DNA of 64,000 nucleotides, taken from assembly GCA_000165345.1 (NCBI GenBank), contig CM000433.1, forward strand, positions 832,001 through 896,000, in the 5' to 3' direction. The position numbers were made by a program, and so were the translations under genes. Of this stretch, positions 4,425-60,800 are shown piece after piece; position 1 is the first letter of the stretch, and the number at the start of each line of letters is the position of its first letter. Below the pieces are notes generated by a model, which saw only the letters and a program-made list of their open reading frames with translations, searched no databases and was not told the DNA's origin.

Positions 4425-4809
4425 GTTTCTTCTTTAATATGATAAATTTCCAAGAATAACGATAGTGATTTTTGTTGTCTGTTATATAATATCATATTCT
4501 TTTTTTTTGGGTAGGTGGGAAAATTTTTTTTTAGATACATGCCGGGAAAATGTCAAACTTTCGTTTTTGTTACCACAAAAAATTAATATATTTAGTAGCG
4601 GTACTCCCGCCAAGCATCGCATTTGTGATGAAGAAATGCATTCTTAAAAACAAGAACACTATTTTATATTTACAATAAAAAGCAACAAGAGAGAAAAGAT
4701 TATTAACTTTAAAGTTTTAAGCCATTTATAACATTTTTTCCTGAAATTTTTACTTACATCAATATCGAATCTGGAGAATCTATAAATTAAAGCTTAACTA
4801 AACAAAAAC
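4425..4809. promoter_or_regulatory. Shared divergent promoter region between the two SbmA/BacA-like genes, with E2F-like motifs
   Basis: A 385-nt region lies between two divergent start codons. It contains GCCGGGAAAA (4541-4550) and TCCCGCCAAG (4606-4615), close to the Cryptosporidium E2F-like G-box consensus. Confidence 0.5.
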
Positions 4810-5826
4810 ATGATATCTCCATACTTATTTAATAAAAAGTATGCACTTAGGGCTTACCCCTTAATCATAGTATTATTAGCTATGATGTGGATTGAAACAG
4901 GACTTAATATCAAAATGACCAAAATTTTCGGAGATTTTAACCAAAGACTTTCTGATTGTGAATCAAAGAGCTCAGACTGCACAATGAATGAAATGTTTAA
5001 ATTTGCATTAAATAACTTTGCTTTAAACTTCTTAATTATTTCATTTTTAAGATGCTTAACAAGCTATCTTGTAAATGTCTTTATATTTTACTGGAGGCAA
5101 GCACTTACAGAATATTACTTAAAAAGCTGGAACTTAATTAGTAGTGTTGAGGGAGCATCTCAGAGGGTACAAGAAGATACAGCAAGATGGGCAAAACAAT
5201 TACGTCTTACCATTTTTGAAATTGTAAGTGCAGGAATGACATTTATTAAAATCATTCCAGAACTTATCGCAGTTTCATCAGCAATTCCTGAAATTTTTAT
5301 TCTCGGAAAGATTAAGAATGGAATTATTTACCCACCATTTATTATATTTGGAATTCAAGTAATAATTTTAGCATTTTCAAGTTATAAATTACCTTATCTT
5401 CACTTTGAAAACCAGAAACTTGAAGCCAAATATAGAAAGGTCCTTGCTTTGAATGAAGATTCAGAACATAACGTTGACTCAAAAGAGTTGGAATCAATTT
5501 ATGAGCACTTGACTAGGAATTACTACTCTACCTTCAAGTGCACCTTCTTCTTCCAATATTTGTATGTTTCTGCAAATGAAATTGCTTTCTTCGTTGGTAA
5601 TATTTTCTTATGGCCATCATTTTTCCATGGCTCTATGACTGTAAAAATCTATTATACAGTCCAAAAGTTTATGGGAGATATGTTATTTGTTTTCATGATC
5701 ATTCAGGAAAGATGGAGAGGATTCACTGAGTTGATGTCAGTCTATAGAAGATTGAGAACATTCGAGGATGAAATTAGCAAAGCTGCTAAGGAAGGTGTTC
5801 AACTTAAAGAGATTGATCTAGATTAA
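4810..5826 (+). CDS. SbmA/BacA-type peptide-uptake transporter transmembrane-domain protein, paralog 2 (338 aa)
   Basis: Contains [13 protein letters not shown]...[33 protein letters not shown] and [17 protein letters not shown], closely matching the SbmA signature stretches. It is paralogous to the gene at 3402-4424. Confidence 0.8.
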   Translation: [338 protein letters not shown]

Positions 5827-52685: not shown

Positions 52686-55574
52686 ATGTCAATAAAGCTA
52701 CGCGAACTAATTAGACAAGTTAGAAACTGCAAAACGGCAGCAGAAGAAAGGTCTATAATTTCAAAAGAATGTGCCCATATCAGAGCACTTTTTAAAGAAG
52801 ATGAAAATCAATATAGACAAAGAAATATTGCAAAATTATTATTTATTCATATGCTTGGATATCCAAGTCAATTTGGACAAGTTGAATGCTTAAAACTAAT
52901 TGCTAGCAATAAATTTTGTGAAAAAAGAATTGGATATCTTGCGATTTGTCAATTATTAGATGAAGATTCTGAAATTTTATTGCTTGCAACCAATAGTATC
53001 AAGAATGATCTGAATCACTCAAACCAATATATTAATGGACTTGCACTCTCTGCTATAGCTAACACAGCTCCTAAAGAGATGTGTAGAGCAGTTTTTAGAG
53101 AAGTTAGTGAACTTTTACTAGTTGGGAACCCATTCATCAAGAAAAGAGCATTACTTGCATCAGTACATATTATTCGAGTTCTTGAAGATGCAGAAATTGA
53201 GTCATTTATTAACTGTATTCCTTCTTTACTTGAAGATAAGCATCATGGAGTTCTTTTAGGTACTTGTCATATGATTAATTCAATAATACAATATCATCCT
53301 GAACATATTGAAGCTTTAGGACCTTTTGTACCTTTATTAGTAAAAATATTAAACACAATAAGTATGGCAGGATATCTTAATTCTATGGAATATGATAATG
53401 GAGGAGTCACAGACCAATTTCTACAAGTACATATACTAATTACAATTGGTGATCTCAGAACTGTTATTGCAGATGATATTAAAGAGAATATTTGTGCCGT
53501 ATTAGCTCAATTATTGACTAATACTGATCATTCCAAAAATGGCGGGAATTCTATTTTATATGAATCTGTTAGAACCATTATTAAATTATTACCATATATT
53601 AATGAGGATGGATTATATATGTTAGCTGTTAATACGGTAACAAAATTCTTACAAAATACTGATTTAAATATCCGTTTTGTTGCCCTTGGTTTATTAGAAA
53701 ATATGAAAGAATTTCCAAATAACTCCAGTACTTGTTCAATAGTCTCAAATGTTAATGAGAGCTTAACTGGAAATAATGACAACAGTAATAATGAAACTGC
53801 GCATGCAGGTTTGGCGCCACATCATGCATTAATTTTAGACTGTTTGAAAGATTCTGACTCGTCAATTAAACTTAGGGCATTAAAAGTTTTGTTTTCTGTA
53901 ATAAATGAAAACAATATAAAGACTTTTATTAAGGACTTATTGAATGCATTATTGATTTCAACAGAAAATGAAGAAATTGATTTTTCTATAGAATTAGCAA
54001 CAGGAATGTGTATTGCGGTAAGGAAATGTAAGCATTTAACCCCACAGTGGTATATTGATACTTATATTAAACTATTTTGCTTGGCTGGAAATATTATTAA
54101 AGAAGAAGAAAGGGATTACTTTATTTCTTACCTTTCTTCTTTAAGTGATTCAAGCATTCATTCATATACTGTCAAAAAGTTATATTTATCATTATTATCA
54201 AGAAATGACCAAATTTTACTAATTCAAGTTACTTTATGGGCAATTGGCGAATATTCTCAGCATCTATTTACTAATAATAATGGAATTGGCTCTTTTGAAG
54301 AACAAAAATCTTTAGATACCTCAGAAATTGATATCTCTGAAGAATCTGTTATGAGTTTAATTGAAAATATTTTAGTTTGTAATTCAAGGGAAATGTCAAA
54401 TAGTAACTACTCATTATCAATATCAGGAATCAATAATTTATGCATTGATTATTCTCATCCAATAAAAGGAGTTGGAACTTATGGCTCTATTAGCTCTATA
54501 GAAACTACAATCAACTTTGCATTAGTAGCTTTGATCAAAGCTAGTATTCGACTCAAGACCCAAAAAAATAAGATACTACAGCTTATTCAGAGTCAAGCAT
54601 CATCTCCATCAGTTGAAATACAACAAAGAGCTTTAGAATATATACAAATTTTGAATTCTAACTGGGATTCTAACCGAAGTCAAATTCTTAACCCTATTCC
54701 AGTATTTGATCTTTCAAATCTTTACTCTAATGAAACTAGAACAAACAGCTATATTAATCTCAATGCCTATAACTCTCCAAAAAATACTAAGAATGAAAAT
54801 ATAAATAACAAATCTAATGATAATACCCTTGTAACAGATCTTTTAGACCTTGATTCTAATATTAATGAAGTAACAGGTAATACAAGTACTAATAATATTA
54901 ACAATTCTAAAGTTGAATCGACTAATGGAAACATCCTGGACTTATTTGACACTATAGCCAGTAATAATACAAAGACTAATCACATCGATTTTAATGCAAA
55001 TGATTCTATGGCTCCAGTTTCTAAAATTGATCCTGTTTTAACTATCACTCATAATAATTCTGGTAACAGTAATAACAACTTACTTAATTTTAATGATAAT
55101 AAACCTACAATAACTACCAAGAGTTCTCCATTTGAGGATCTTATTGACTTTAATAAGCTTGATTTATCTTCTTCACACTCTTCTTCAATTCAAAATAATA
55201 ATTTAAATTCTATTGAAACTATTAAAATTTATGAAAACAAGGATATTAGAATCACATTTGATATATCCAAAAACAAATTCAACCAAAGAGAAACCAACTT
55301 CACTGCAAAGTATTTCAATATTTCTGATGTAGATATATCAAACTTTAAACTAGAAATTGCTGTTCCAAAATATCTTAATATTCAGCTTGAAACTGCCTCT
55401 AGCAACTACCTTCCTTCTAATAACTTCAATCATCCAGCAAAACAAGAAATTAAAGTTACCAAAAATGGAGATGAAAATAATCAAATACTTATGAAGCTTA
55501 GAATTAACTATCTTATCAACAATAACCAAGTTACCGAATATTCGAATGTAAATAATATTCCCAGCAAATATTAA
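52686..55574 (+). CDS. AP1G: AP-1 adaptor complex gamma-adaptin large subunit, with an Asn/Ser-rich hinge and C-terminal ear
   Basis: The N-terminal [73 protein letters not shown]...K-R-I-G-Y-L-A is nearly collinear with human AP1G1 ([29 protein letters not shown]...[31 protein letters not shown]). Single 962-codon exon. Confidence 0.9.
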   Translation: [962 protein letters not shown]

Positions 55575-55736
55575 TTATAATTTTAATAATATACAAATAT
55601 TTATTATTACGTGTTTGCATGCATTTTTCTGCATGTATTTGTTTTTTTTTGACACGTCATTTTTTTTCTCAATGTGGATAATAAAAAGTAATTTAGATAT
55701 ATATATATATGTATATATATATTTATATATATTTAC

Positions 55737-58700
55737 TTAAAGTGCACTACCTCTAATTTTCTTAATACTTTCTAATATATTTAATGTCATTTGTTTATTA
55801 ATATATCTGTTATTTTTAATACAAGAATATAAAAGGAAGCCGCAATTAAGACACCCATTTTTACAGTTACAGCTATTTATATTATCCCTCATATTAAAAA
55901 TAATATCTTCAATAATTCGAACTTCCTTTCCGTTTGAAGTACATTTCAATTTCATTAGTTCATTAAAATATCCATTACCTCCCTTTTTATTTTCATATAG
56001 CAGAAGAGTGATAGAATTTGTTTGTTTATCTTTTTGATTATAAATTTTAACTAAAAGATAATTTCAGATAAATGTAATTTATTATTTTTTTTCTCAAGAA
56101 AAATTATACTTAATAAACTTACTGTCAGGGCATTCACAAGAAATATCATTAATATTACAAGATATAAACTTTGGAAGCGAATTAATAACATTGTGAATAA
56201 TCCCATGTATAGCTATATTAATTATTTCAACTTCAAATTTATCACTTAATTCTAACTTTATCTGCATTCCCATTGTATTAAATGAGTAAACTAAAGGATT
56301 TTGAATATATTTCTCTTCCATAAAAATCCATTCATTATTAATTATCTCAAATATTGAATAACTATATATATCAAAAGTAACTCTTGCTCCTGTTATATAT
56401 ATATTCATACTAATAATATCGCTTTCCAAACTTTCACTCAATGTATATCTTTCGCCATTTCCTTGCATTACTACTGAAACTTCCCCTGAAGAAACAGTCT
56501 TTTGTTTAAGTCTATGATCACCCTTCTTAATTTCTTGTACTATTCCTATAATTCATTGTAATTTTTTAACAATTTAATCATTAAATCATTATTTAATTTA
56601 TAAATATTATTATTATTAACCTACCTCTTCTGGATGTTAAGTCCACTGATAAAGTCTTATATAACACCCCATTTATTGAATATATTGATTCTGGATATAC
56701 TAAACGAACTGAATTATAAATTGGTAATGTGTCAATAATCACCCTACTATCCTTAACATCGTAAAGTGATACAGTTATATCGCTATCTCTAACATCTATT
56801 TGTTTGTAAATATCTTTTGGATCATTCAAAATCAACTGATCATTATTTTCAAAATATAATGAAAGCAATGATGAAATGCATGCAGGTTCGATTCCCGCTT
56901 CAGATTGATTCTTTATCCTATTCCAATTATAATATAAATCGCATGCAACAAAATCTTGAACTTTTGAATTATCGTAAGTAACAATTAGATTTCTGTAGTA
57001 CAAAAATTTGATAATATCAACCAATATTTCAGAGTTTAAATCCAAAATCTTTGAATCTCTTTTAATATTAATAAATTTATAAGTTTCAACTGTTAAACAT
57101 ATAAGGTGAAGAATTAATAAATAAGGATTCTTTAAATTAATAACACATGAATCAAATTGTTTAGATAATAATTCATCGCCATGATTACTTATATAATTAT
57201 CAATTTCATTATTTTCATTTAATAAAAGCACTTTAATACTTTTTGTTTTATGATCTCTTCCACATCTTCCAAATTGTTGAGTCAATCTATTAATAGACCC
57301 AGGGTATCCAAAAACTATTACACTATCAAAACATTTTACATCAATTCCTAGTTCCAATGCAATAGTACTAATAACAATTTTTACTTTACCGTTAAATATT
57401 AGTGATTCTAATTTTCTTCTTTCAGTTTGAGAAATCCCTCCCCTATAAATTTGAATATCAGAATCAAAGTTGAATTGATGATCATTATGAAGATTTATCT
57501 TCTTTAAAGCCATTAAAAGGTCTCTCTTAATATTTTCAACCAATTTTCTTGAAGGACAAAATAAAATTAATTTACGATTTAAATAGTAGAATTCAATTAA
57601 CATATTAATACATTCTTTATAACTTTTATTTTTTTTTATTTGACTATAATTTTTTGTATTATCTTTAATAATATACTTATTACAATCCCAAATTAATATT
57701 GATGATTCTCCCTTTGAACTTGAATCATTATCAATAAGTGCAATATCGTTAAAATCTTTAAATTCAGAACCAATCAAGTTTTTAAAATGCTCAATAGGGT
57801 TATTTATTGTTGCAGTACATACAATATACTGAGTATATGTTTCAGAATCTATATAATTATTTTTTTGTTTGTAATATAGAATGCCTCTGTGAAGTCTTTT
57901 TAATATATAGCTTGTATTAATTCCAAAATGGCCTGTATAAATATGAGCTTCATCGATAACAAGCAATTTTAGACGATTATAAATCATACAAGATAAAAGT
58001 TCAATATTCCAATGAATAAAATCAATATTAGTTAGAATAATATTACTTTTTAATAATATTTCTCTTCTTTGATTCATATTTGTATCTCCATCAAGTTTAT
58101 TAACCTTTGGCAAAATAGTTGGAGGTTCGGGATGAAAAAAACTTAGAATTTGTGTAATCTTCATAAACTGATCTTCAGATAATGCCTTTGTTGGAAATAT
58201 TAATAAAGCCAAATTTTTTGGGTTTTGAATGGCAAATTGAATGCATGGAAGTAAATAACACATAGACTTTCCACTTGATGTACTGGTTGTAATGATTACA
58301 TTCTTTTTATCTCGCAAAATGGCTTTAATTGCATCACTCTGATGATTATAAAATCTAAATTTGTTAGATGAACTTTTATTAATATAAATGCTCAGCATAT
58401 CAATTATTTTCGGATCAAGAATTGAATATACCTGATCATTTTCATGGCAGTAGTTAGTTTCTCGTCCCTTCTCAAATTTCTGGCTTACTATTCCACCTTT
58501 TAAAATTGTACTTTTTGAAATAGTTTCAATGACTTTATCAGAGTCTACCGTTTGATTTTTTCCATTTGGGATTGACATTAATTGATTTATTCTTCTTATT
58601 CTAATTTCCTCCAGACTATTCTCTTTTACCTCAATATCAACTTTATCCGTGAATTTGTCTTCAATTTGCTCATTTTTCTCACTAATATTCATTAATAATT

Positions 58701-59308
58701 GTTTCTCAAAGAATTCTAATAAAGAGTCCATTGATTTTTTGTTGAGTTTATTGGATTGAATTAAATTATTACAAGATTTTATATCTAAGTCTTTTGGTTT
58801 GTTTTTATTACATATAGTATCAGTTCCAATATTGAAATTTATTATATAGTCCCTCGCATTAGCCAGTATTTCATTTAATTCAAAGTTAGTATTTGAATGA
58901 GATACTTGTGTTTCTGAAATCCTTGTTATTGTAATTTTATCTTTTAGTACAGCAATTACATCTTTAAAATCACCAATATTTTTAATTCCATGTACTCCAG
59001 GACATCTTCCAAGCCTACAAATGCATTCATCAGAAACCCCACACAATATTGATGATATTCTTGTAATGCATTGGTTTGAAACAAGTTTATTGTAAGTTGC
59101 TAAATATGTTCGAAGATAGAAAAAAAAAATAATCAGATTTTTGTTTAATTAATTTTCAAATATTCTAAATTCTCTGTTATTCAGTCAACTTACCTAGAAT
59201 CTTCTTTAAAAACTCAATTAATCGAATATTTTTAATAATTTGAGCCTGGTATGTATTCAATTTGTTTCTTTGATTTATTAAGTCATCCGTTCTTTCTCTT
59301 TTGAGCAT
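55737..59308 (-). CDS. DEXH-box ATP-dependent DNA helicase of the Hrq1/RecQ4-like (YprA/MrfA) family with a C-terminal DUF1998 Cys4 zinc-binding domain, four exons: 59308-59194, 59099-56625, 56545-56123, about 56029 (or 56051)-55737
   Basis: Motif I region: F-Y-N-H-Q-S-D-A-I-K-A-I-L-R-D-K-K-N-V-I-I-T-T-S-T-S-S-G-K-S-M-C-Y-L-L-P. Motif Ib: P-T-K-A-L-S-E-D-Q. Motif II: L-V-I-D-E-A-H-I-Y-T-G. Motif VI: Q-Q-F-G-R-C-G-R-D. The downstream exons encode L-L-L-Y-E-N-K-K-G-G-N-G-Y and the Cys pairs C-E-C / C-N-C...C-L-N-C typical of DUF1998. Introns on the minus strand are: ATG 59308 ... GTAAGT (59193-88) / TTTAG (59101-00); GTAGGT (56624-19) / TTATAG (56547-46); GTAAGT (56122-17) / AG at 56053-52 or 56031-30. 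The last acceptor is unresolved (see findings). Confidence 0.7.
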
Positions 59309-59540
59309 ATTTCAAGCTTCCTATATTATTTTACCATATAAAAAAAAGTGTTTTATTATTTTAAATTTTTTTCCATTCAATTTTATATTACGTGTACATT
59401 TTATACCGGCATTTCATTAAATGACGTAATAATTATTTTCTTATTTTGACATGTAACTCCGGTATTAATTTTTATCCACATGCGGGAAATTCAAATTAAT
59501 AATGAATTTAAAAATAGTATTAAAATAATAAAAGTAGAAT

Positions 59541-60800
59541 TTGATGAATAAATTTGAAAATGGTTTGGAACATGTAAAATTAAGGATTTCTAATATTGAA
59601 GATGAAATATATAATATAACAGAGTTGAGAGAAAGAAATATTATTGAGAAGGAGAAATTAGAAGATGAAATATATGAAATTATTGAAATTGAAAAAATAC
59701 TATCAGAGCTTTATGATGAATTGTACAGAATTTCAAATTTCCATGAGGCTAATAATGTTTTAATTACTAGAGCTTTTGAAGAGAAATTGGTGAAAATATT
59801 TAAAGAGTATTACTCAAATAAATTAGAGAATTTAAATAACATTAATTTTTTAGACTATGAACAAATTAAATATAGTTATCAAAATTCCAGATTATCATTA
59901 ATTAATGAGTTGAAAACTAATTTTGGGCAAGATTTGCTGAAGATTGAAGTTTTGAATAATATTATTAAAAAATTAATCGCGTCAAATGAGAAAATCTTTT
60001 ATGCTATATTCAAAGTTGAAGATTTATACAAAATACTTTTGTGCTTTATATATACAGATTTTTTGATTTGGGATCCTTTTTCAGATTCTCCAAATACTGA
60101 TTTACTTTCTTTTTCAAGCATCATCAATGATGTATTAAAACAAGATGGTGTAACTACTTTGAATGTAAGTTTTTTTAATACTGAAAAGCTTGTGGAAAAA
60201 TTATATCTTGAAAAGCTCATGAATTATATTTGTGAAATAGTAAAACTGTATTGGACTCCTTTTTATTTCAAAGAAACAGAGAAATTTGTTAAATCTATAA
60301 GAAATGTTAAAGATATTCTTGAAATTGATATGTCAGAAGTTGTGTCCGAACTCATGAATAAACTTCAAGATAATTTTAATTTTTTGATTTCAGAGAGTTT
60401 TTTAAAACCCGAAAATGAATTTAAGTTTGTATTACTGATCTTAAATTGGGCTGCTTCAGTACTCATGGTTACAAAAGCATTTCAAGTAAAACAAGAGTAT
60501 ATTAATTTATTAATAAGCAAGTCCATTCTTCATTTTTCCCAAAACTCGATCCAAAACCACGAAAATAAAAATTTAAGAAAACTACTCTGCGAAACAGAAA
60601 TTGACGTTAAAGAAATCAATGATTATTCAGTAAATGAACAAAAGTTAGATTCCAATATATTATTGAATCCTAAGGTTGCTGGCTTACTAAATATTAATGA
60701 GGTTTTATATCAAATTAAAAACAGCTTTAAATTAAATTTTCCTAAAAAAAAATATATCTTAATTGATATTATATTAGAAATTATATCAAGTTATAATTAA
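59541..60800 (+). CDS. Hypothetical Leu/Lys/Glu/Asn-rich alpha-helical protein (419 aa)
   Basis: Uninterrupted ORF, not recognisably similar to a known family. Confidence 0.5.
   Translation: MMNKFENGLEHVKLRISNIEDEIYNITELRERNIIEKEKLEDEIYEIIEIEKILSELYDELYRISNFHEANNVLITRAFEEKLVKIFKEYYSNKLENLNNINFLDYEQIKYSYQNSRLSLINELKTNFGQDLLKIEVLNNIIKKLIASNEKIFYAIFKVEDLYKILLCFIYTDFLIWDPFSDSPNTDLLSFSSIINDVLKQDGVTTLNVSFFNTEKLVEKLYLEKLMNYICEIVKLYWTPFYFKETEKFVKSIRNVKDILEIDMSEVVSELMNKLQDNFNFLISESFLKPENEFKFVLLILNWAASVLMVTKAFQVKQEYINLLISKSILHFSQNSIQNHENKNLRKLLCETEIDVKEINDYSVNEQKLDSNILLNPKVAGLLNINEVLYQIKNSFKLNFPKKKYILIDIILEIISSYN

Follow-up and report, generated by a model that had tools for sequence, protein, structure and literature searches.

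The closest described relatives of the gene reported here are the fungal Hrq1 proteins and the bacterial helicase MrfA (YprA). Hrq1 of Schizosaccharomyces pombe and Saccharomyces cerevisiae is the so-called 'RecQ4-like' helicase of inter-strand crosslink repair, and yeast Hrq1 is conventionally named as a RecQ4 homologue (PMC7797055). MrfA of Bacillus subtilis, for which structures have been solved (PDB 6ZNP, 6ZNQ and 6ZNS), displays the domain order NTR-RecA1-RecA2-WH-OB-CON-MZB; the names of the accessory domains WH, OB and CON follow the MrfA paper, which gives the distribution of the family as bacteria, archaea, fungi and plants only (PMC7797055). Here we describe a gene in a 64-kb window of chromosome 5 of Cryptosporidium parvum (contig CM000433.1, positions 832,001 to 896,000; "the window" denotes this whole stretch, which has a guanine-plus-cytosine (GC) content of 27%). 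This single-copy gene, composed of four exons (59308-59194, 59099-56625, 56545-56123 and 56050-55737, minus strand), very probably encodes an intact DNA helicase of superfamily 2 (SF2) belonging to the Hrq1/MrfA (YprA) family. Every sequence and structure feature of the MrfA/YprA/Hrq1 family that could be tested was found in the encoded protein, and those of RecQ proper were not found. From end to end, the protein is identical (100%) to C. parvum GenBank proteins (1.09-Mb chromosome-5 record).

Gene structure

The gene model was obtained by enumerating all GT donor and AG acceptor pairs near the three suspected junctions and keeping the frame open from the ATG at 59308 to the stop at 55737. 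Among the frame-open combinations, the chosen one has the best splice signals and is comprised of three canonical GT..AG introns, all in phase 1. The four exons (115 + 2475 + 423 + 314 = 3327 nucleotides) correspond to 1108 codons plus a TAA stop. The elements of the gene, in the direction of transcription, are as follows.

59194..59308, minus strand: exon 1, 115 nucleotides; ATG at 59308-59306, residues 1-38 and the first base of codon 39; donor CTAG|GTAAGT
59100..59193, minus strand: intron 1, 94 nucleotides, GTAAGT...TTTAG; GC content of 20%, versus 26% in the exons
56625..59099, minus strand: exon 2, 2475 nucleotides; N-terminal extension, RecA1, RecA2, WH and most of OB; includes the 817-residue open reading frame (ORF)
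56546..56624, minus strand: intron 2, 79 nucleotides, GTAGGT...TATAG; GC content of 11%; position kept in all species examined
56123..56545, minus strand: exon 3, 423 nucleotides; last part of OB, the beta-hairpins of CON, and the first half of MZB as far as CECPD
56051..56122, minus strand: intron 3, 72 nucleotides, GTAAGT...TTTTAG; holds a run of five A and the in-frame TGA 56096-56094
55737..56050, minus strand: exon 4, 314 nucleotides, closing with the TAA stop (55739-55737); the remaining half of MZB, which contains the zinc motif

The first-pass annotation of this DNA had regarded the 817-residue ORF (56593..59046, minus strand) as the core only of a larger helicase gene, and this view is borne out, the ORF sitting within the four-exon gene. 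The upstream exon of 115 nucleotides that it had proposed to start at ATG 59308 does close at a GTAAGT donor, the two downstream exons carry the predicted hallmarks of DUF1998 (LLLYENKKGGNGY and CNCKNGCLNC), and the outer span of 55737-59308 is the one annotated in two GenBank assemblies of C. parvum.

The orthologous loci of C. ubiquitum, C. felis, C. xiaoi, C. canis and C. andersoni were compared by mapping their proteins back onto the DNA. Wherever the model is complete (C. ubiquitum, C. felis, C. xiaoi and C. andersoni), the three introns have kept both their position and phase 1; their sequences are distinctly less conserved than the exons and have a lower GC content. For intron 1, position and phase are kept in five other Cryptosporidium species, and the N-terminal peptide is conserved across the junction, with L34 and L38 on one side and Y41, N42, K43 and L44 on the other being invariant. 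Intron 1 is also present in the gene model of the C. parvum IOWA-ATCC assembly, whose authors state that all introns annotated there are supported by RNA sequencing (RNA-seq) (PMC8744675); since only such introns were kept, that annotation provides indirect support for introns 1 and 2.

Domain composition and catalytic motifs

The gene had been proposed to encode an Hrq1/MrfA-type DEXH helicase with a DUF1998 four-cysteine tail spread over four exons, and domains, motifs and fold all agree with this. A hidden Markov model search for DEAD, Helicase_C and DUF1998/MZB, suggested along with that proposal, found all three above the Pfam gathering thresholds. A DUF1998 match is present in the downstream exons as well, the peptide of exon 4 by itself reaching 33 bits on Pfam MZB, for which the cut-off is 24.2. 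The domains and motifs are located as follows.

57790..58347, minus strand: RecA1 (DEAD), residues 290-475; Pfam DEAD 2.2e-26, 93 bits
Within 57790..58347, minus strand: RecA1 motifs; Q motif H291 Q292, Walker A TSSGKS 312-317, DEAH 421-424, motif III TAT 467-469
57253..57585, minus strand: RecA2 (Helicase_C), residues 544-654; Pfam 1.5e-14, 54.6 bits; motif VI QQFGRCGR 646-653
56232..57132, minus strand: WH (residues ~695-770), OB (~812-870) and CON (~875-968), spanning intron 2; boundaries read from the AlphaFold model
55842..56195, minus strand: MZB (MrfA Zn-binding, formerly DUF1998; PF09369), residues 981-1074, spanning intron 3; 1.1e-10, 42.5 bits
55842-55871, minus strand: four-cysteine motif CNCKNGCLNC, residues 1065-1074

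All catalytic residues that are invariant in the family are present: the Q motif, the GKS of Walker A, DEAH, and the QxxGRxGR of motif VI. In an alignment of 40 family members of fungal, plant, holozoan, bacterial and archaeal origin, H291, Q292, G315, K316, D421, E422, H424, Q646, G649, R650 and R653 all fall in invariant columns, and C1065, C1067, C1071 and C1074 are nearly invariant. The spacing of these four cysteines, CxCx3Cx2C, is that of MrfA, and in the AlphaFold model they occupy a coil flanked by predicted helices at 1050-1064 and 1090-1105. Four close cysteines in a coil between two helices are what marks the zinc site of MrfA (PMC7797055). The motif, a predicted zinc site, is intact.

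The description 'RecQ4-like' given in the first-pass annotation holds in the loose sense in which it is used for yeast Hrq1, but not in the sense of RecQ proper. A Pfam search of the 1108-residue protein gave no RecQ zinc-binding, RQC or HRDC domain, and the RecQ family models remained below their cut-offs (TIGR00614, recQ_fam, 61.8 versus 219.8 bits; TIGR01389, 50.9 versus 640). The best sequence match in the PDB is YprA/MrfA (6znp, 9.5e-47), while RECQL4 comes next at 1.7e-10, over RecA2 only.

Predicted structure and proposed mechanism

The AlphaFold model, built on the 40-sequence alignment, has a pLDDT of 76.5 and a pTM of 0.74. In a Foldseek search, this model matches the MrfA-DNA structure 6znp_A over the whole 748-residue chain (894 alignment columns) with an E-value of 5.9e-48 and a target-normalised TM-score of 0.80; the next helicases (Brr2, Lhr, Pol theta, Hel308 and WRN) follow at 1e-17 to 1e-15. 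The predicted secondary structure displays the MrfA order of WH, OB, CON with its long beta-hairpins, and MZB.

By analogy with B. subtilis MrfA, M. smegmatis SftH and yeast Hrq1, the C. parvum protein would bind the 3' single-stranded tail of a DNA substrate and would translocate in the 3' to 5' direction on single-stranded DNA by ATP-driven inchworming of RecA1 and RecA2 (PMC7797055). The OB-CON 'canopy', pivoting on the zinc-stabilised MZB, may likewise close over, or clamp, the loading strand (PMC7797055). On the same analogy, the protein would be expected to take part, probably together with a nuclease, in repairing inter-strand crosslinks and bulky adducts.

Comparison with known helicases

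Of the known helicases, fungal Hrq1 resembles the C. parvum protein in several respects. S. pombe Hrq1 (O13983) is the best match outside Cryptosporidium to a profile of the genus (317 bits), the fungal proteins are of similar length (1063-1077 residues, versus 1108 here) with Walker A near residue 310 in both, and DEAD, Helicase_C and MZB follow each other in the same order. Both also share a longer spacer within MZB, of 27 residues in fungi and 25 here, versus 19-20 elsewhere in the family. In contrast, identity over the core is only 23-25%, the N-termini show no detectable homology, and neither the WHD_HRQ1 domain (PF22982) nor the CDT1-like match of many fungal proteins was detected in C. 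parvum, while the Cryptosporidium N-terminus possesses an invariant C-x5-C-x6-C-x3-H motif of its own.

B. subtilis MrfA/YprA is the best match among solved structures by both sequence and fold, and it shares with the C. parvum protein the domain order from RecA1 to MZB, perhaps preceded by the NTR strand as well, and the spacing of the four cysteines (HCPCHDGCPSC in MrfA, CNCKNGCLNC here). Compared with MrfA and SftH, the C. parvum protein has an N-terminal extension of ~230 residues and low-confidence insertions at 516-527, 768-781 and 891-907; moreover, its gene contains spliceosomal introns and has no adjacent gene for an MrfB-type exonuclease, its neighbours being an adaptin gene and a gene of unassigned function. 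Human RECQL4 and the RecQ helicases are likewise SF2 DNA helicases, with weak similarity over RecA2 (5lst, 1.7e-10), but differ in that no RecQ zinc-binding, RQC or HRDC domain was found here and the accessory module is of the MrfA type, WH-OB-CON-MZB.

The YprA-like helicases of defence systems (DrmA of DISARM, DruE of Druantia, and DpdF/J of Dpd) share the YprA-type core and gave weak PADLOC matches. No full-length match to a PADLOC defence helicase was found, the best reaching at most 88.6 bits over parts of the RecA core only; these matches are partial and far weaker than those to the non-defence MrfA type, and neither a nuclease fusion nor a defence gene neighbourhood is present at this locus. 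A survey of YprA proteins remarks on a resemblance between the homologues in eukaryotes and the prokaryotic branch without a role in defence (bioRxiv 10.1101/2025.09.15.676423).

The third intron and competing gene models

The first-pass annotation had seen a frame problem of one nucleotide at the last intron, and this turns out to be a counting slip, in which a run of five A in intron 3 was taken as four. On the plus strand the run reads AAAAA and occupies 56099-56103, rather than four bases at 56100-56103; being located inside intron 3 (56122-56051), it has no effect on the frame. The strong acceptor, placed by that annotation at AG 56053-52, is in fact AG 56052-56051, with exon 4 starting at 56050, and instead of being out of phase by one nucleotide it joins in frame, the donor ACA|GTAAGT at the end of exon 3 (56123) pairing with TTTTAG in the model. 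A homopolymer or assembly error of one nucleotide, which had been offered as an explanation, is rejected: two other C. parvum assemblies carry exactly the same DNA for this gene, which makes three in agreement, and the A-run is intronic. The alternative acceptor at AG 56031-30 was correctly described as in phase; it is situated 21 nucleotides further on, and the supposed choice between a weaker splice site and a sequence error disappears, as both acceptors are in frame.

Conservation of the junction across the genus argues for intron 3 as modelled. Donor 3 reads GAYA|GTAAGT in every species, and the next exon opens with TT or TA, completing an Ile codon. The length of the intron varies from 52 to 216 nucleotides among species; despite these differing introns, the peptide from the junction Ile (I1005) to the YEN motif is 21 residues long in six species. 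The junction peptide CECPDIxI...K is invariant in the same number of species and is conserved across the genus as far as C. andersoni, and the spacing from D997 to Y1023 is 25 residues in every Cryptosporidium species. Nucleotide conservation of exon 4 is comparable to that of exons 1-3 (0.82 versus 0.83-0.86 with C. ubiquitum; 0.69 versus 0.70-0.71 with C. felis). Reading through past donor 3 leads to a stop within 8-14 codons in every species.

One further in-frame acceptor was considered for this intron.

56030..56031, minus strand: alternative in-frame acceptor AG; the exon start would be 56029; second AG after the polypyrimidine tract; judged unused

Several observations count against the four-exon helicase as we describe it. 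Pfam MZB does not separate the two in-frame acceptors (49.6 bits for 56029, 46.6 bits for 56050), and the choice of 56050 was made because conservation and signal strength favour it. The splicing of intron 3 is deduced from comparative evidence, and the IOWA-ATCC model (QOY41806.1, 1013 residues) omits this intron and ends at TGA 56096-56094; as that annotation keeps only introns backed by RNA-seq (PMC8744675), junction 3 had no such support there. Pfam WHD_HRQ1 (PF22982) has no match in C. parvum at E <= 0.01, nor in the Cryptosporidium orthologues in precomputed lists, and it is found in nearly all other family members listed; the AlphaFold model predicts a three-helix, two-strand element at residues 697-762, and the fold may perhaps be present with its sequence signature lost. 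The N-terminal extension has no homology to fungal Hrq1 N-termini that could be detected by sequence comparison. Finally, the biochemical activity and biological role of the protein would be those of its homologues, from which they are taken in their entirety.

Two other readings of the 3' end of the gene have to be weighed against the four-exon model. In the one, intron 3 would be joined to AG 56031-30, giving a product of 1101 residues reading ...CECPDNKQTNSITLLLYEN...; this acceptor lies in frame, raises the MZB score slightly, and would produce a D-to-Y spacing of 18, near the 19-20 of prokaryotic, plant and holozoan members. It would, however, delete IKIYNQK and with it I1005, I1007 and K1011, which are invariant in six species (38% identical at the deepest split), from a stretch whose 21 residues are constant in length across species while the intron is not. 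The upstream acceptor (56052-51) is the first AG, directly after the pyrimidine-rich tract TTATCTTTTAG, and a similar longer segment exists in fungal Hrq1 (spacing 27, ...ECKAPEKEF...), and we regard use of the downstream acceptor as hardly credible. In the other reading, which we consider quite improbable although somewhat less so, the gene would have three exons and end at TGA 56096-56094, the product of 1013 residues would end ...CECPDSKFIKYNFS, and the ORF at 55737-55955 (72 residues) would be a separate small gene or non-coding. This is how the gene is annotated in C. parvum IOWA-ATCC/BGF (QOY41806.1, CPATCC_0025560, cpbgf_5003860), C. canis (1016 residues) and C. ryanae (1010 residues), the first of which retained only introns supported by RNA-seq (PMC8744675), and a separate gene of 72 residues is annotated in C. 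hominis UdeA01 (PPS96764.1). The 1013-residue product, however, has no MZB match at all and lacks the four-cysteine motif that defines the family, and MZB/DUF1998 is reported to be vital for the helicase activity of MrfA (PMC7797055). The 72-residue ORF alone scores 18 bits, below the MZB cut-off of 24.2, whereas the exon-4 peptide read from the acceptor scores 33 and the spliced product 42.5-46.6. Across the genus, the length of the intron varies while its donor, phase and acceptor and the reading frame beyond it are all kept, and the last exon is plainly present downstream in C. canis even though it is not annotated there. The four-exon model with exon 4 starting at 56050 is the one retained here.

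Distribution and origin

A search of 1.84 billion representative sequences with the Cryptosporidium profile gave scores of more than 1580 bits for Cryptosporidium and 317 for the next match, with no close relative outside the genus among these representatives. The matches to the genus profile include Cvel_29676 of Chromera velia (EukProt), and a search with this protein led to HRQ1 in dinoflagellates (Symbiodinium and Effrenium), stramenopiles, a chlorarachniophyte, green algae, plants, holozoans and fungi. As HRQ1 is pan-eukaryotic and present in the closest relatives of the apicomplexans, vertical descent of the Cryptosporidium gene is the simplest reading of these sequence comparisons.

Trees and profile comparisons gave a less uniform picture. 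A neighbour-joining tree of 114 sequences provided no resolved placement of Cryptosporidium, and in one of 52 curated sequences Cryptosporidium was located beside the longest prokaryotic branch, while p-distances were flat, at 0.70-0.73 to every group; we read this grouping as probable long-branch attraction. Profile affinities in two- and three-group comparisons were mixed, with differences of at most 45 bits. Shared introns were also examined as a sign of vertical descent and were set aside: none of the three coincides with any of the 26 introns of Salpingoeca or the 23 of Rhynchospora, the nearest being 3 alignment columns off and in another phase.

The gene could instead have been gained by an ancestor of Cryptosporidium from a bacterial MrfA/YprA gene via horizontal transfer, the introns and the N-terminal extension being added later. 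Cryptosporidium has other well-known bacterial acquisitions, its clade falls among prokaryotic members in 84 of 100 neighbour-joining bootstraps, and a prokaryotic profile gives sequences of the intestinal clade ~20 bits more than does a profile of non-fungal eukaryotes; the absence of any intron position in common with Salpingoeca or plant HRQ1, and of homology between the N-terminal extension and fungal Hrq1, point the same way. Against this, no other branch of the tree comes near that of Cryptosporidium in length, and the branch that it joins is the longest of the prokaryotic ones, which is the pattern of long-branch attraction; the raw distances are flat across all groups, and the earlier tree gave no resolved position. 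In the profile comparison, C. andersoni and C. serpentis favour the eukaryote profile by ~40 bits, and for true prokaryotic members the difference amounts to 100-370 bits. Members of the family also occur in Chromera and dinoflagellates, which cluster with each other among the eukaryotes, the position of Walker A, at residue 309, resembles that in yeast Hrq1, and the top sequence matches outside the genus are fungal Hrq1. Taken together, horizontal transfer appears unlikely, and vertical descent is preferred.

No other apicomplexan was found among the matches that could be named, a set in which very divergent orthologues would have ranked too low to be included. It is conceivable, though doubtful, that among apicomplexan parasites this helicase survives only in Cryptosporidium, having been lost from coccidians, haemosporidians and piroplasms and kept in chromerids and dinoflagellates.

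Some features of individual family members were seen in the course of these comparisons. The HRQ1 genes of Salpingoeca rosetta and Rhynchospora pubera have at least one intron in common, immediately ahead of Walker A (alignment column 680, phase 0). In Chromera, the HRQ1 model (1891 residues) contains long low-complexity inserts and ends with ...LPLFVLGERSDI, corresponding to the start of MZB near the site of Cryptosporidium intron 3; it probably lacks its terminal exon or exons as well. A 921-residue Hrq1-like protein from an ENA metagenome scaffold, belonging to a compact and seemingly intron-poor fungal-like genome, possesses WHD_HRQ1 and no MZB, which may be due to natural loss of the zinc domain or to a truncated gene call. 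This protein appeared as sister to Cryptosporidium in the first tree and was discarded as divergent, MZB-less and uninformative.

The N-terminal extension

The region upstream of the helicase core is specific to the genus.

58495..59308, minus strand: N-terminal extension, residues 1-240, genus-specific in sequence

It places Walker A at residue 309, compared with 311 in Saccharomyces Hrq1 and ~77 in prokaryotic members. Homology of the N-terminal 240-270 residues to fungal Hrq1 was looked for and not detected, hhalign giving a probability of 2.7% and this only over a strand just before the core; the AlphaFold model has a strand at residues 241-248, before RecA1, where this weak profile similarity to fungal N-termini is the only one. 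An unfiltered hmmsearch of the N-terminus returned no match below E = 0.4, and Pfam at E <= 10 gave noise only.

Within the extension, the pattern C58-x5-C64-x6-C71-x3-H75 (LCGxSxxCxxxLGxCxxxHG, 58990-59043) does not vary among the six species compared and has no match in Pfam. From its sequence, it may constitute an additional metal-binding knuckle.

Gene neighbourhood

The helicase gene, on the minus strand at 55737-59308, is located between two genes of the plus strand.

52686..55574, plus strand: AP-1 gamma-adaptin gene, downstream of the helicase gene and convergent with it
59541..60800, plus strand: gene of 418/419 residues without assigned function, upstream of the helicase gene and divergent from it; DCP1 lies beyond

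The gene order DCP1, 418-residue gene, helicase and AP-1 gamma adaptin is kept out to the gastric species C. andersoni.

The helicase gene and the upstream plus-strand gene have a divergent intergenic region of 232 nucleotides (59309-59540) in common. It contains a conserved block comprised of an E2F-like octamer TTTCCCGC (59482-59489), CATGTGGATAAA, ACCGG(T/A) and TTACGTCATTTAATGAAAT..CCGGTA, which is kept in C. ubiquitum and C. canis and in part in C. xiaoi and C. felis; only 10 E2F-like octamers occur in the window. We infer a possible regulatory function of this block for one of the two divergent genes. On the other side, the convergent spacer of 162 nucleotides (55575-55736) holds the palindrome TGCATGCA at 55616-55623 with TGACGTG(T/C)CAA nearby, and both recur between the corresponding genes of C. 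ubiquitum and C. canis; in the window, the octamer TGCATGCA is found 11 times.

Public records and significance

The gene is already known. The identical protein of 1108 residues has been deposited for C. parvum (KAL5368804.1 and WKS78028.1), full-length orthologues are on record for C. hominis, C. meleagridis and C. ubiquitum, and the name 'putative ATP-dependent helicase hrq1' is given to C. hominis PPA63130.1 as well as to the C. felis orthologue; as early as 2004, an Iowa II entry, an 851-residue partial, was labelled 'yprA'. The first-pass annotation had not seen this family described in apicomplexans, which stands for the papers searched and fails for the databases. In the literature searched, we found no paper linking Hrq1 with Cryptosporidium or Apicomplexa and none for gene identifiers of the cgd5_3860 type, and the search for DUF1998 together with apicomplexan names gave nothing relevant.

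The public models disagree with each other. Those of IOWA-ATCC/BGF (1013 residues), C. canis (1016 residues) and C. ryanae (1010 residues) run into intron 3 and lack the zinc-binding last exon, and in C. hominis UdeA01 the gene is split into a 713-residue helicase and the separate 72-residue gene. The missing exon of C. canis is seen downstream of its annotated stop, at about 4697-5000 of the C. canis locus. Judged by comparison between species, the four-exon model corrects the IOWA-ATCC annotation, which loses the zinc-binding exon. The practical value of the present analysis is this correction, the gene being otherwise an ordinary, routine component of DNA repair; users of models of the 1013-residue type in surveys of orthology, domains or drug targets would miss a complete Hrq1/MrfA helicase of Cryptosporidium. 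To our knowledge, the human host has no MZB-type helicase. Should the helicase indeed survive only in Cryptosporidium among apicomplexan parasites, the parasite would possess a repair helicase for crosslinks and bulky adducts with an MZB zinc domain that has no human counterpart, which would be of modest interest.

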